Notes: generated by a model not told the origin, from the letters alone. A stretch of DNA of 64,000 nucleotides from Deltaproteobacteria bacterium (GCA_034670305.1 JAXMNT010000008.1:32001-96000), one strand, 5' to 3'; shown: positions 3,270 through 8,465, counted from the first letter of the stretch. Program-made: numbers and translations.

Positions 3270-3504
3270 CAGCACCGGCCCCGGCGTCGGCGTCGGCACG
3301 GGCGTCGACATCGGCATGCATCGGCACAGGCGTCGGTATCGGCATGCATCGGCATCGGCTTCGGCATCGGCTTCGGCATCGGCTTCGGCATCGGCTTCGG
3401 CTTCGGCATCGGCTTCGGCATCGGCTTCGGCATCGGCTTCGGCATCGGCTTCGGCATCGGCTTCGGCATCGGCTTGCGCTTCGGCTTCGGCATCGGCATC
3501 GGCG
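3270..3504. repeat. Hexamer tract (CGGCAT/CGGCTT)n
   Basis: Direct reading; begins ~18 nt after the LysR stop. Confidence 0.95.
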
Positions 3505-4960: not shown

Positions 4961-5473
4961 ATGCGAAGTTGGATGGTTCTCGCGCTCGTGGCGTGTGGTG
5001 GTTCGAACGAAGACGCGGTGCTCCAGCAGGAACTGGAGGCCGAAGCCGCGGCTGGCGACGAGGACACCGAAGGCGAGATCACCATGGCCGACCGGTACCG
5101 CGCCGCGGACAGCCGGGTCTTCGAGGCTTGCTACGACGATCTCGACCACCTCGACGAACGCCACCGAGAGCGGCGCTCGCTGCGGGTGCGCCGAATCTCG
5201 GAGAGCCGGGCACAGGCTTCGACACCGACCGGCTTGGAAGTCGAGCGCGCCAGCGACAGCGAAGACGCGCCGGACGAGTTGCCGAGCAACGTCGATGCCG
5301 CTGCAAACTACCACCCGGTCGAGCAGCAGCTCATCGCGCTCGAGAACGAACTCGACGACTTTCATGCGGCGCATCCGGACGTCGACGCGTGGTCGGACGC
5401 GGAGCTCGCACGCTACGAAGACCTCGCGGACGGACTGCATGCCCGCTGTACGGAGATGCGCAGCGCGGGGTAG
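4961..5473 (+). CDS. Hypothetical acidic lipoprotein
   Basis: MRSWMVLALVAC lipobox, typical codon usage, divergent from the FKBP gene. Confidence 0.7.
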   Translation: MRSWMVLALVACGGSNEDAVLQQELEAEAAAGDEDTEGEITMADRYRAADSRVFEACYDDLDHLDERHRERRSLRVRRISESRAQASTPTGLEVERASDSEDAPDELPSNVDAAANYHPVEQQLIALENELDDFHAAHPDVDAWSDAELARYEDLADGLHARCTEMRSAG

Positions 5474-5484
5474 TTGGACGGGAG

Positions 5485-5692
<208 letters not shown>

Positions 5693-5699
<7 letters not shown>

Positions 5700-5719
5700 C
5701 GCGACTCGCGCGGGCCTCG
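5693..5719. other. GC-rich hairpin CGAGGCCCGCG-actcg-CGCGGGCCTCG between the tract and the four-helix-bundle stop
   Basis: Perfect 11-bp stem, no U-tract. Confidence 0.6.
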
Positions 5720-5726
5720 CAGCCGA

Positions 5727-6038
5727 CTACCGACTGAGCCGATACAGCATCGCGCAAACCTCATCGCAGCGTCGCTCGATCTCCTCGCCAACCTCCGCGT
5801 ACCCAAACAGCCGGACCAGTCGAAGCGCCGCTTTCAGTTCGCTCGCCTCACCATACGCGATGGAGAACCGGTCCACGCTCCGCTTCCCGCGAGCGTTCTT
5901 CGCCTCCGCGCAGTTCAGAACGACGGACTGAGCCGCCCGCCGCATCTGCTCCCCAAGCGAACGGTCCCGGCGAGAAACAGCCGCCAGCACCCCGCGCAAC
6001 TCACCAACGAGAACAAAAGAAGTTTCGAGAACAATCAT
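5727..6038 (-). CDS. Four helix bundle protein (23S rRNA IVS protein/Avd-like family)
   Basis: 103 aa; [20 protein letters not shown] matches the family motif LxxQxxRAAxSxxxNIAEG; [12 protein letters not shown] and [18 protein letters not shown] before ATG 6038. Confidence 0.9.
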
Positions 6039-6065
6039 CAGAGCCTCCTCGCGCCTGGAAAGAGT

Positions 6066-6282
6066 GAGCAACGTTGCTCGGCGGCGCGGAGCGCCCCCGG
6101 TGGAGAGCGCAGGGCGGGTCAAGGGCGAAGCCAGCCTTCCGAAGGCTGGGGCCGAAGGCACCCTTGACGCGACCGAGCACTCCGCCACCATGAAATTGCC
6201 GCCGAGCCAAAGCCCACCCCGAGTAGGGTGTTCCCAAAATCCGAAGGATTGAAGGGAGCCGACTTTCCGAAGGAAGAGGCTA
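6066..6282. promoter_or_regulatory. Long imperfect hairpin with several C-GNA-G triloops and TTGACG-N16-CACCAT; candidate ssDNA (Frpo-like) promoter
   Basis: GCTCGGCGGC 6076-6085 pairs with GCCGCCGAGC 6198-6207; GTCAAGGG 6118-6125 pairs with CCCTTGAC 6161-6168; triloop hairpins at 6084, 6125, 6151, 6238 and 6265. Confidence 0.6.
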
Positions 6283-6286
6283 CAAG

Positions 6287-6530
6287 CTGTTGCTGTTGCT
6301 GCTGCTGACTCTGCCGCTGTCTCTGCCGCTGTCTCTGCCGCTGCCGCTGCCGCTGCCGCTGGCCGCTGCCGCTGTCGCTGCCGCTGCCGCTGTCTCTGCC
6401 ACTGCCGCTGCCGCTGTCTCTGCCGCTGCCGCTGCCGCTGCCGCTGTCTCTGCCTGACTCCTGAAGGCGAGGCCGAATCCGAATCCGAATCCGAAATCCG
6501 AAATCCGAAGCGCCGAGTCCGAAGCCGCAA
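6287..6530. repeat. (CTG-NNN)n tract, then (CCGAAT)n and (CCGAAAT)n
   Basis: Direct reading; upstream flank of the four-helix-bundle gene. Confidence 0.95.
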
Positions 6531-6544
6531 AGCAAGCCGCTGGT

Positions 6545-7366
6545 TCAGCGAAGCAGCGCCGCGTACAGCGCGCGGTAGCCCGCCTCGTCCGGGCCGACGT
6601 GGGCTCCGGGGTAGCGCATGAGTTGGGTTGGAATGCCCGCGTCGACGATGCGCTGGTGGCTGCGCTGCATGCCCTCGACGCGGGCGCGCTGATCACCGGT
6701 GGCGATCGCGAAGAGGGCACGGCCGTCGCGGTCGCGCAGGGTGGTGAGGGTGTCGCCGCGCGGTCGGACGCTGCACCGGCTGCCCACCATGAGGGCGCCG
6801 CGAAACAAGTCGGGCCGGCGCATCAACATCGCCCAGCTGAGGTCGCCGCCGAGCGAGAAGCCGGAGACGAAGATGCGCTCGCGGTCGACCGGGAACTGCT
6901 CGATGGCCCGCTCGATGTCCGCTGCGAGTCGGGCCTCGTAGGCATCGAGGAACTCGCGAAAGTGCGGGAGGTAGTCGCCGCGCCCGGGGCGCCCTTGCGG
7001 CAGCAGCTGAACGTAGCCGGGGAGCTCGATCACCGACGCGACGCGCTCGTAGAACTCTTCGCCGGTGCCGTTGGTGGGCGGGAGGAAAATCAACAGAGGC
7101 ACCCGCTCGGTGCGCGCGACCGTTCCGTGCACCTGGATGCGTGCCGGTCGCTCGAGGAAACCTGGCCCGTCGTCCAGCACCGCGCCTTCGGGCAACGCCG
7201 CGGGCCACGAGGGCGACGCGGGCGGGTTGGCCATGGTGGTGGGATGAAGGATCGGCTCGGACGGTGAGTGGTGCGTCGGTGTGCGCGCCTCCTGCGAGTC
7301 GCCACCGCAGCCTGCGACCCATCCGATCAGCAGGGCGATCCCAACGAAACACCGTGTGGCACCCAT
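6545..7366 (-). CDS. Alpha/beta-hydrolase (esterase/PHB depolymerase-like), lipoprotein
   Basis: VAGC lipobox; VDRERIFVSGFSLGG nucleophile elbow; C-terminal YPGAH. Confidence 0.8.
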   Translation of the reverse strand: MGATRCFVGIALLIGWVAGCGGDSQEARTPTHHSPSEPILHPTTMANPPASPSWPAALPEGAVLDDGPGFLERPARIQVHGTVARTERVPLLIFLPPTNGTGEEFYERVASVIELPGYVQLLPQGRPGRGDYLPHFREFLDAYEARLAADIERAIEQFPVDRERIFVSGFSLGGDLSWAMLMRRPDLFRGALMVGSRCSVRPRGDTLTTLRDRDGRALFAIATGDQRARVEGMQRSHQRIVDAGIPTQLMRYPGAHVGPDEAGYRALYAALLR

Positions 7367-7403
7367 GCGGGAATCGTAGCAGCCACTGGCTTGAGGCATG
7401 CCC

Positions 7404-8465
7404 TCAGGGATCGATGCGGTAGAAGCGGGCCGCGTTGTCGCGGAAGAGCGCGCGGCGATCCGACTGCGACCGGGTTGCGACCACCTCCTGAAACACGTCG
7501 ACCATCTGAGCGTAGCTCAGGGACGCCTTCTCCACGGGGAAGTTGCTGGCGAACGAACATCGGTCGACGCCGAACGTGTCGATCGCGAACTCGAGGAGTG
7601 GTGCGAACGCATCGACGACTTCTGCGGTGCCGGGTGGTGAGGCCCGGCCGCCGAAGTCGAACCCGCAGATGGGCATCGCGAGACCGGACAACTTGAGTTG
7701 AACGTTCGGACAAGCGGCGACCCGCTCCATCCCATCCCGCCACCGCGCCAACACGTTGCTTCGTTCACGCGGCGTCTGCCCGACGTCGCCGTACGGACCA
7801 CCGATGCCGACCGGGCCACCCATGTGGCAGAGCATGATCGGCTGCTCGGGATACGCGCGCGCCAGTGCTGCGATCTCGCCGAGCTGGGTGTCGTAGCAGA
7901 ACGCATCGAAGGAGAGCCCGAACTCCGAGAGGCACTCGAACCCGGCCCGCCATGCTGGGCTGGCGGAGCGCCCCGGCTGTGCGTTGAAGTCCATCACGTC
8001 CCGGCTCGCATGCCACGCGAGCATGTCGCGAATGCCGCGGACGCGCGGGCTGGCATCGAGGTGCGCCTGCAGCACGGGTCGAACGTCGCGGCCGAGCGAG
8101 AGGTCCGCGTGCGCCACGATGGCTTCGACCCGTCCCCGGCCGGACGCGCGCAGCGACTCCACCCAGCGCGTCTCCCCGACCGGACCGAGCGGGCCCTTCT
8201 CTTCCCAGGACGCTTCGACGTACACCAGACCGGCGACAGGATGGTGGCCACAGTCGGCGTCGAAGTCGGCCGGCAGGTAGTTCTTCGTGGCGTGTTCAGG
8301 CGTGCGGAAGAACCGAATGGCTTCCTTCGGAAACGCGTACTTCGCCGCGAAGTTCATCACGCGCGGCGCGGACCCGAGGAGCTTCACCAGCGGCGTCACC
8401 AGCCGCGGGTTGTTCCTCGGATCCCACAGATGCACATGCGGATCGATCATCCACGGGTCGGACAT
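7404..8465 (-). CDS. Amidohydrolase family protein (amidohydro_2)
   Basis: IDPHVHLWD, LCHMGGP, KLSGL, FASNFPV. Confidence 0.9.
   Translation of the reverse strand: MSDPWMIDPHVHLWDPRNNPRLVTPLVKLLGSAPRVMNFAAKYAFPKEAIRFFRTPEHATKNYLPADFDADCGHHPVAGLVYVEASWEEKGPLGPVGETRWVESLRASGRGRVEAIVAHADLSLGRDVRPVLQAHLDASPRVRGIRDMLAWHASRDVMDFNAQPGRSASPAWRAGFECLSEFGLSFDAFCYDTQLGEIAALARAYPEQPIMLCHMGGPVGIGGPYGDVGQTPRERSNVLARWRDGMERVAACPNVQLKLSGLAMPICGFDFGGRASPPGTAEVVDAFAPLLEFAIDTFGVDRCSFASNFPVEKASLSYAQMVDVFQEVVATRSQSDRRALFRDNAARFYRIDP

Follow-up and report, generated by a model that had tools for sequence, protein, structure and literature searches.

The segment at positions 6066-6282 of the stretch of Deltaproteobacteria bacterium DNA analysed here (GCA_034670305.1, JAXMNT010000008.1:32001-96000; 64,000 nucleotides, referred to below as the window) is a conserved leader, able to fold, that belongs to a multicopy cassette with a four-helix-bundle gene on the minus strand. 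The leader core (6076-6207) is a branched imperfect palindrome with covarying helices, and a pair of promoter-like boxes is conserved on its gene-distal arm, on the + strand. The reading that we tentatively favour is that the leader acts at the DNA level, as a hairpin promoter formed by the unpaired + strand. What is new in this system is the strand-specific design of a promoter within a hairpin, the bias towards GNA triloops, the covariation confined to Watson-Crick pairs and the bias in orientation with respect to replication.

A multicopy cassette with a conserved leader

The preliminary description of the segment had taken it for a lone, odd chromosomal site; it is instead one of 36 leader-plus-gene copies in the window's own genome (G000 in the locus labels, in which C-numbers denote contigs). 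There are 47 PF05635 matches in this genome, of which 36 have a recognisable start and a homologous leader, are dispersed over the contigs and fall into three subfamilies of 14, 8 and 14 copies. From one end to the other, the cassette comprises a hexamer array, the leader, the PF05635/TIGR02436 four-helix-bundle gene and a further hexamer array. All copies share this plan: the first tandem array of hexamers is followed by the outer hairpins, then by the branched stem of the core, a Shine-Dalgarno sequence with the gene and, often, the second array. Homology among the copies begins at GTAGCCTC, and the conserved end of the cassette lies at about 6282. The leaders of the full-length subfamily-1 copies are 82-89% identical, though the synonymous divergence (dS) among their genes is 0.45. 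Decayed and solo leaders are also present in the genome.

The window copy corresponds to C8:37742-38032 among the 34 cassette loci whose orientation was examined. Cassettes also occur in pairs about 1 kb apart, in direct orientation at G000:C46:57723-59297 and in inverted orientation at G033:C54:8861-9863 and G138:C5:40260-41201. A search of genome contigs for related loci with the single protein as query gave no confirmed relative, and no paper describing the cassette or its leader was found in the literature, supplements not covered.

Conservation and covariation of the fold

When folded with DNA parameters, 6066-6282 reached -55.7 kcal/mol on the + strand (z -4.52) and -54.5 kcal/mol on the minus strand (z -3.83), and none of 200 dinucleotide-preserving shuffles folded as well as either strand. 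The two stems drawn in the preliminary description were recovered base by base. In the outer of these, P1, the gene-proximal strand GCTCGGCGGC (6076-6085) pairs with the gene-distal strand GCCGCCGAGC (6198-6207), and in the inner one, P3, GTCAAGGG (6118-6125) pairs with CCCTTGAC (6161-6168), which together form the most conserved helix of the leader. Between them lies P2, the gene-proximal strand of which (6099-6117) pairs with about 6169-6185, the spacer of the + strand promoter described below. The stem is branched by three hairpins. P6 (GGCGC-GGA-GCGCC, 6083-6095) overlaps P1 by three bases, and other copies include variants with a longer stem; its GGA loop is not conserved among the copies. 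P5 (CCAGCCTT-CCG-AAGGCTGG, 6131-6149) is a sixth hairpin, absent from the preliminary description, which had listed five C-GNA-G mini-hairpins; all five of those were found (6084-6094, 6125-6131, 6151-6159, 6238-6250 and 6265-6275). P4 (GCC-GAA-GGC, 6151-6159) is replaced by a compensatory GGCC-TGC-GGCC in other copies, and the GCGAAGC mini-hairpin motif at 6125-6131 on the + strand reads GCTTCGC on the sense strand, where GCTTCG is kept in all three subfamilies.

A covariance model was built from 12 subfamily-1 leaders and a hand-drawn structure. In its own genome the model gave 35 matches, made up of 29 loci and 6 opposite-strand echoes of the palindrome, and across the order it located the leader in 12 of 151 genomes from five families, the window's own genome included. 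The resulting alignment is fitted to the model and has 85 rows, 12 of them opposite-strand echoes. Of its paired cells, 93.4% were able to pair, compared with 71.2% in shuffles and 35-44% in slid controls, and 41 of 45 pairs changed on both sides. All pairs scored in P1 (9/9) and P6 (5/5) did so, as did those in P5 (8/8), where the alignment is weak in distant copies. Examples of compensatory change are GGGCG/CGCCC versus GCCTG/CAGGC in P2, and GCTCGGCGG/CCGCCGAGC versus GCCCGGCGG/CCGCCGGGC versus GGCCCGA/TCGGGC in P1. The covariation is far beyond both the shuffled and the slid controls, despite the fitting to the model and the non-independence of the copies, and it extends over all three subfamilies and over 11 further genomes of the order. 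The helices proposed earlier are in this respect borne out by their homologs, and no Rfam family explains the structure: a search of positions 5000-7500 against the 4227 families of Rfam, with E values up to 10, gave no family match and only spurious matches to the arrays (isrG, scoring 22 and 15 bits where the gathering score is 100, at 6272-6441 on the GCTGCC-type array; mir-711 with an E value of 7.5).

Two further structures flank the core. On its gene side lies the 14-bp palindrome GAGCAACGTTGCTC (6066-6079), found as described previously when read base by base. It shares GAGC with the 3' strand of P1, so that the two pairings are mutually exclusive. Palindrome-like pairings were seen by eye in other copies as CCGGGC/GCTCGG, CCGAG/CTCGG and CCCCGAG/CTCGGGG. 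On the far side lies the outer hairpin domain (6215-6281), which consists of H3 (6215-6230), H2 (6233-6256) and H1 (6257-6281). H2 holds AATCC-GAA-GGATT (6238-6250) and H1 holds TTCC-GAA-GGAA (6265-6275). The stem of H2 changes among the copies from CCC/GGG to CTCC/GGAG and from ATCC/GGAT to GTCC/GGAC.

Promoter-like boxes on the gene-distal arm

The gene-distal arm of the window copy carries on the + strand a -35-like TTGACG (6164-6169), which lies inside P3, and a -10-like CACCAT (6186-6191), which lies at the junction between P2 and P1. This TTGACG-N16-CACCAT arrangement had been noted before, together with its mirror on the sense strand of the gene, which does read TTGACC-N17-CGGGGG. Among the homologs, a pair of the form TTGAsn-N15-19-nAnnnT is present on the + strand of the gene-distal arm in 48 of the 51 distinct sequences, from 12 genomes, that were long enough for the box test, with a spacer mostly of 16-18 nt. 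One relative and two copies that bear an insert make up the three exceptions. On the sense strand, the mirror position holds a box pair in 2 of 54, no sigma-70-like promoter is conserved on that strand, and the genomic background is such that 8.5% of TTGA[CG][CG] sites have a -10 partner of this kind. The -10 hexamer varies (CACGCT, TACGCT, CACCAT, CACGAT, TACGGT, TACCCT, CACAAT) while A at its second and T at its sixth position are constant.

The placing of the boxes relative to the helices is also conserved. The -35 sits in the most conserved helix, and 35 of 41 sequences have a gap of 7 unpaired nt between the -10 and P1, in a stretch that is variable and rather A+T-rich (6192-6197 in the window copy, unpaired; the start predicted from this layout would fall near 6198). 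When each sequence was folded individually as + strand DNA, the -35 had 4-6 of its 6 bases paired in all 39 cores with boxes, the spacer was 87% paired, and the -10 had at most 3 paired bases in 25 of the 39. The modelled layout is that of a pre-opened promoter, with a duplex -35 and spacer, an open -10 and discriminator, and a duplex that would resume at about +1.

In the two insert-bearing copies, a hairpin-rich insert of 68 nt lies between the -35 and the -10 (G000:C28:6975-7042 and C68:36201-36268), and the two inserts are identical at 64 of 68 positions. A part of this insert, 26-40 nt in length, occurs at about 10 other loci and looks like a separate small repeat.

Strand preference of the fold

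In RNA selected on one strand, G-U pairs are normally much more common than A-C mismatches. In the alignment of 59 distinct sense rows, 2084 of 2291 paired cells were Watson-Crick, with 38 G-U and 29 A-C, and in P1-P3 alone there were about 8 G-U cells compared with about 28 A-C (summed over the per-pair table). When wobble pairs in P1-P3 were counted by lineage, 18 were found on the antisense and 8 on the sense strand, and addition of one P2 position changed this to 18 antisense versus 22 sense, so that the lineage count singled out neither strand. By cell count, the pairing is almost purely Watson-Crick and without wobble bias, unlike that of RNA selected on one strand.

The loops and mismatches are distributed unequally between the strands. 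Among 202 perfect triloop hairpins, C-GNA-G was read in 89 on the + strand and in 2 on the sense strand, and purine-purine mismatches amounted to 114 cells on the + strand and 26 on the sense strand. No GNRA or UNCG tetraloop family is represented among the terminal loops; a reading of CCTTCGG as a cUUCGg RNA tetraloop was ruled out, as the stems fit the triloop register only. In terms of stability, folding of both strands, which the preliminary description had proposed as a check, favoured the + strand with DNA parameters only: with these, the core was more stable on the + strand in 32 of 43 sequences, and with RNA parameters neither strand was favoured (24 + strand versus 19 sense). Whole-leader RNA folding, with the array flanks included, favoured the sense strand in 22 of 36 copies, whereas folding of the core only did not. 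The triloops, the mismatches and the stability with DNA parameters all point to the + strand, and to DNA.

The four-helix-bundle gene

The gene that follows the leader (5727-6038, minus strand, ATG at 6038-6036) encodes a basic protein of 103 amino acids, with a pI of 9.3, and is preceded by a Shine-Dalgarno sequence, AGGAGG (6044-6049, minus strand), that lies 5 nt before the ATG and is kept in the alignment of the copies. The protein exceeds the curated cut-offs of both PF05635 (53.2 bits, cut-off 33.8, E value 3.8e-14) and TIGR02436 (57.8 bits, cut-off 24, E value 1.1e-15), the family of 23S rRNA intervening-sequence proteins and Avd, and it matches PDB entry 2gsc with an E value of 1.4e-4. 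Within the three subfamilies the ratio of nonsynonymous to synonymous divergence (dN/dS) is 0.13 (13 genes compared in subfamily 1), 0.09 and 0.06, with dS of 0.45-0.64, and the genes are intact. The cassette genes are therefore old, maintained paralogues under purifying selection, and it follows that their proteins must be made. A consensus promoter scan gave no match for a sense promoter of the gene. Promoters of the extracytoplasmic-function (ECF) and sigma-54 types on the sense strand, and a sense -10 at the junction, were considered and dropped by eye, as there was no conserved -35 partner.

A possible hairpin promoter and its alternatives

If the + strand were unpaired, either as a single strand or in a cruciform, P3 and P2 would restore double-stranded DNA over the -35 (TTGACG) and over a spacer of 16 bp, the CACCAT -10 and the next 6-7 nt would be open in the junction, and P1 would begin at about +1. 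RNA polymerase would then take the gene-proximal arm as its template, from about 6085 leftward, and would run into the gene. The resulting mRNA, starting near 6085, would have a leader of 47 nt with a 5'-proximal hairpin formed by the palindrome at 6066-6079, followed by the Shine-Dalgarno site. Where the DNA is an ordinary duplex, these boxes face rightward, away from the gene and into the flanking array. Use of the boxes by RNA polymerase, the unpairing of the strand in the cell and the position of the start are what we infer. No other reading covers as many of the observations together as a hairpin promoter does: the covarying stem, the strand and position at which the boxes sit, a -10 that is left open, loops of the DNA type, wobbles without bias and a gene that has no sense promoter.

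Several observations weigh against this explanation. Among the 34 cassettes with more than 20 kb of context, 29 have their gene on the strand that is locally richer in G, compared with 582 of 1157 long open reading frames (ORFs). The sign of the GC skew changes exactly at dnaA (G000:C5, about 130 kb), which is probably the replication origin, and therefore skew tracks replication here. With the genes on the G-rich strand, the + strand mostly serves as the template of leading-strand synthesis and is not the one that the fork leaves single, which rules out fork-exposed single strands as the trigger; the bias may instead reflect hairpin stability, conflicts or mobility. The boxes of the window copy match the consensus at 8 of 12 positions and were missed by the consensus scan, and in 14 of the 39 individual folds the -10 has 4-6 paired bases. 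The genes behind the two insert-bearing leaders (C28 and C68) are intact and differ at 17 synonymous versus 7 nonsynonymous codons, and 14 lineages have, at a single position of P2, a T-G when the sense strand is read, which corresponds to A-C on the + strand. The paralogues and relatives are not independent of one another, and the counts overstate the support. Finally, a hairpin promoter needs an unpaired state that is itself postulated.

A different explanation, rather unlikely on balance but only a little less probable than the hairpin promoter, is that the leader is a structured sense RNA of a cassette that has no promoter of its own and is read through from upstream, in which case the boxes would be a separate outward promoter, for example of an antisense or array transcript. 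The stem might then direct RNA processing of the RNase III-like kind seen in rRNA intervening sequences, stabilise the transcript or serve to switch translation. Covariation is what an RNA would show, and the alternative pairing of the 3' strand of P1 just before the Shine-Dalgarno sequence, which recurs by eye with changed sequence in other subfamilies and genomes and has a G-T on the sense strand in subfamily 2, is as in RNA switches. The T-G kept at the P2 position and the intact genes of the copies with a split box pair would also fit a sense RNA. The upstream neighbour, as found with a crude ORF filter that arrays can fool and that gave no neighbour for 13 of the 36 cassettes, is co-oriented in 16 of 23 cassettes, the window among them with its hydrolase gene (6545-7399, minus strand), but it is divergent in the other 7. 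G-U is no more common than A-C overall (38 versus 29) and rarer in P1-P3 (about 8 versus 28), the terminal triloops match no known RNA motif, RNA parameters do not make the sense strand more stable (19 versus 24) and no Rfam family matches, all of which argues against a sense RNA. This explanation also has to ascribe to chance that the boxes lie in the conserved helix and at the junction, 7 nt before P1 and always on the distal arm.

It is unlikely that the boxes form an ordinary duplex promoter firing outward, giving a short hairpin-rich RNA or a transcript of the array, with the palindrome in some other DNA role. It might promote recombination or mobility via a single-stranded intermediate, act as an insulator or be bound by the four-helix-bundle protein. 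The boxes are indeed conserved, and in several relatives the array begins about 25-40 nt from the core on the side that they face. Arrays lie upstream of 29 of the 36 cassettes, and downstream within 400 nt of 18 of 36; for comparison, a position picked at random has an array within 700 nt in 13% of cases. The repeat unit tracks the subfamily. The orientation bias against GC skew (29/34) resembles that of fork-mobile single-strand elements, and some leaders are decayed or solo. However, an outward transcript starts past the stem, which leaves the compensatory changes in P1 and P2 unexplained, and it leaves the gene promoter-less. No transposase is linked to the cassettes and none of the 3 reverse transcriptase (RVT_1) matches adjoins one, and the dS of 0.45-0.64 with strong purifying selection indicates old, maintained copies and not a recent spread. 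Least probable by far is that the fold and the boxes are functionless by-products of a repeat-rich, G+C-rich sequence. The 1117 arrays of the genome, rich in GCCGAA-type units, could seed CCGAAGG hairpins, and high G+C content makes stable folds common, but 0 of 200 shuffles were as stable, the covariation spans genomes with different array units, the sense strand serves as an internal control for the boxes (48/51 versus 2/54), and the subfamily-1 leaders remain 82-89% identical though dS of the gene is 0.45.

The broader form of the hairpin promoter reading is that the cassettes carry chromosomal single-strand (hairpin or cruciform) promoters and that the protein is made only when the template strand of the locus is unpaired, which we regard as doubtful. 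If it held, the cassette would be a sensor of unpaired DNA (replication stress, R-loops, supercoiling) or, alternatively, the expression-and-priming module of a small element with a single-stranded stage, and it could link the protein family to the hexamer arrays that accompany it. To our knowledge, single-strand promoters occur only on DNA that enters the cell single-stranded, as in conjugative plasmids, filamentous and N4-type phages and rolling-circle replicons. A layout of paired -35 and spacer, open -10, GNA triloops of the DNA type and covariation confined to Watson-Crick pairs, if kept in this role at dozens of chromosomal sites in several families, would extend the idea to resident genes and would give a first handle on the expression of the intervening-sequence-like and Avd-like four-helix-bundle genes and on the DNA state that is sensed. 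If the sense-RNA explanation held instead, the leaders would be a large undescribed family of leader RNAs with an embedded antisense promoter.

Comparison with known systems

The Frpo and ssi single-strand promoters, described in PMC11541004 and reportedly by Masai and Arai in 1997, belong to the leading regions of conjugative plasmids. The leader resembles them in that a long hairpin of one strand would rebuild a duplex -35 and -10 for the host polymerase, which here is a prediction accompanied by conservation, and in that the folded strand is the template of the following gene, with the boxes on the antisense gene-distal arm in every subfamily and relative examined. Such an arrangement allows the gene to be read ahead of the complementary strand or in its absence. 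It differs in that the copies are chromosomal and dispersed, with no conjugative element, oriT or leading region seen in the 64-kb window, which was not annotated as a whole for transfer genes. A plasmid match and an A+T-rich UP element are also lacking, P4, P5 and P6 make the stem branched, and the cargo is a four-helix-bundle gene and not ssb, psiB or an anti-defence gene. In a search of 72,556 plasmid records, neither the leader DNA (blastn with 6040-6290, E value 1e-3) nor the protein gave a match. Of the Frpo-like geometry put forward in the preliminary description, the box pair (conserved, 48/51 versus 2/54) and the triloops (biased in strand, 89 versus 2) stood, and no link to conjugative plasmids by sequence or context was found. 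Frpo, as described in PMC11541004, is defined by its leading-region context. Because that context is missing here, the leader is not a member of the Frpo family; by analogy, it may work like one.

The mini-hairpins themselves have known counterparts. GCGAAGC, CCGAAGG and GCGGAGC are extraordinarily stable DNA mini-hairpins. The review PMC13037366, which describes the GCGAAGC motif, locates CCGAAGG in ssiA of RSF1010 and GCGGAGC in the early promoter hairpins of phage N4, and PMC3201870 states that the stability of d(GNA) loops depends on the closing pair. The + strand of the leader holds GCGAAGC at 6125, CCGAAGG at 6152, 6241 and 6267, and GCGGAGC within 6086-6092. The known hairpins serve primases or the N4 virion polymerase on phage and plasmid single strands, whereas those described here decorate a larger chromosomal stem with sigma-70-like boxes, and no primase or phage context was seen. 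P6 (6083-6095) has a 5-bp stem and a GGA triloop, as do the N4 virion-polymerase promoters in the description given in PMC13037366.

Riboswitch- or attenuator-like leaders share with this one a covarying multi-stem structure upstream of a Shine-Dalgarno sequence and a mutually exclusive alternative pairing. The differences are that here there is no Rfam match, G-U is nearly absent, the loops are triloops and not tetraloops, and there is no promoter upstream of the structure. Two other systems are related through the protein. The S23p proteins of Leptospira and Coxiella are encoded by ORF-bearing intervening sequences of 23S rRNA, and the cassette is similar to these in that a PF05635 protein is encoded in a compact element where a strong stem is present and no dedicated promoter is obvious. 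However, there is no rRNA match in 5000-7500 and the neighbours are protein-coding, the stem lies upstream of the ORF and does not enclose it, and the flanking arrays are not complementary (0/13). Avd, an accessory protein of diversity-generating retroelements, also belongs to PF05635 and is likewise a small basic four-helix-bundle protein; here, by contrast, no RVT_1 adjoins a cassette (3 in the genome, the nearest 5 kb away; template and variable repeats were not searched for).

Hexamer arrays and mobile-element genes

In the window, the array downstream of the gene (5515-5700) reads (GCCGAA)n on the + strand and (TTCGGC)n in the sense of the gene, and the upstream arrays (6290-6530) consist on the + strand of (GCTGCC/GCTGTCTCT)n from 6290 to about 6450 and of (CCGAAT)n from about 6470 to 6530. 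None of the 13 cassettes with arrays on both sides has them as reverse complements that could act as mutually pairing arms. Mobile-element genes were considered as partners of the arrays and cassettes. A link to Y1 (RAYT-like) transposases was rejected, as none of the 11 Y1_Tnp (PF01797) matches has an array within 1.5 kb; these matches lie in open frames of 233-249 amino acids, for example at C20:45721-46002. A link to reverse transcriptases was rejected on the same kind of evidence, with none of the 3 RVT_1 matches of the genome adjoining a cassette. The nearest of them (L149 5583-7181; G000:C67:18082-19680) is an ORF of 532 amino acids that contains RVT_1 only, together with an N-terminal extension of 250 amino acids, and the 5 kb between it and the cassette hold two large ORFs without a Pfam family. 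In the genome as a whole there are 1117 period-6 tandem arrays of at least 48 nt, amounting to 113.6 kb, of which 510 have GCCGAA-type units; those at 3330-3500, 5515-5700 and 6290-6530 are examples from the window. GCCGAN is read on the locally G-rich strand in 420 of 637 arrays.

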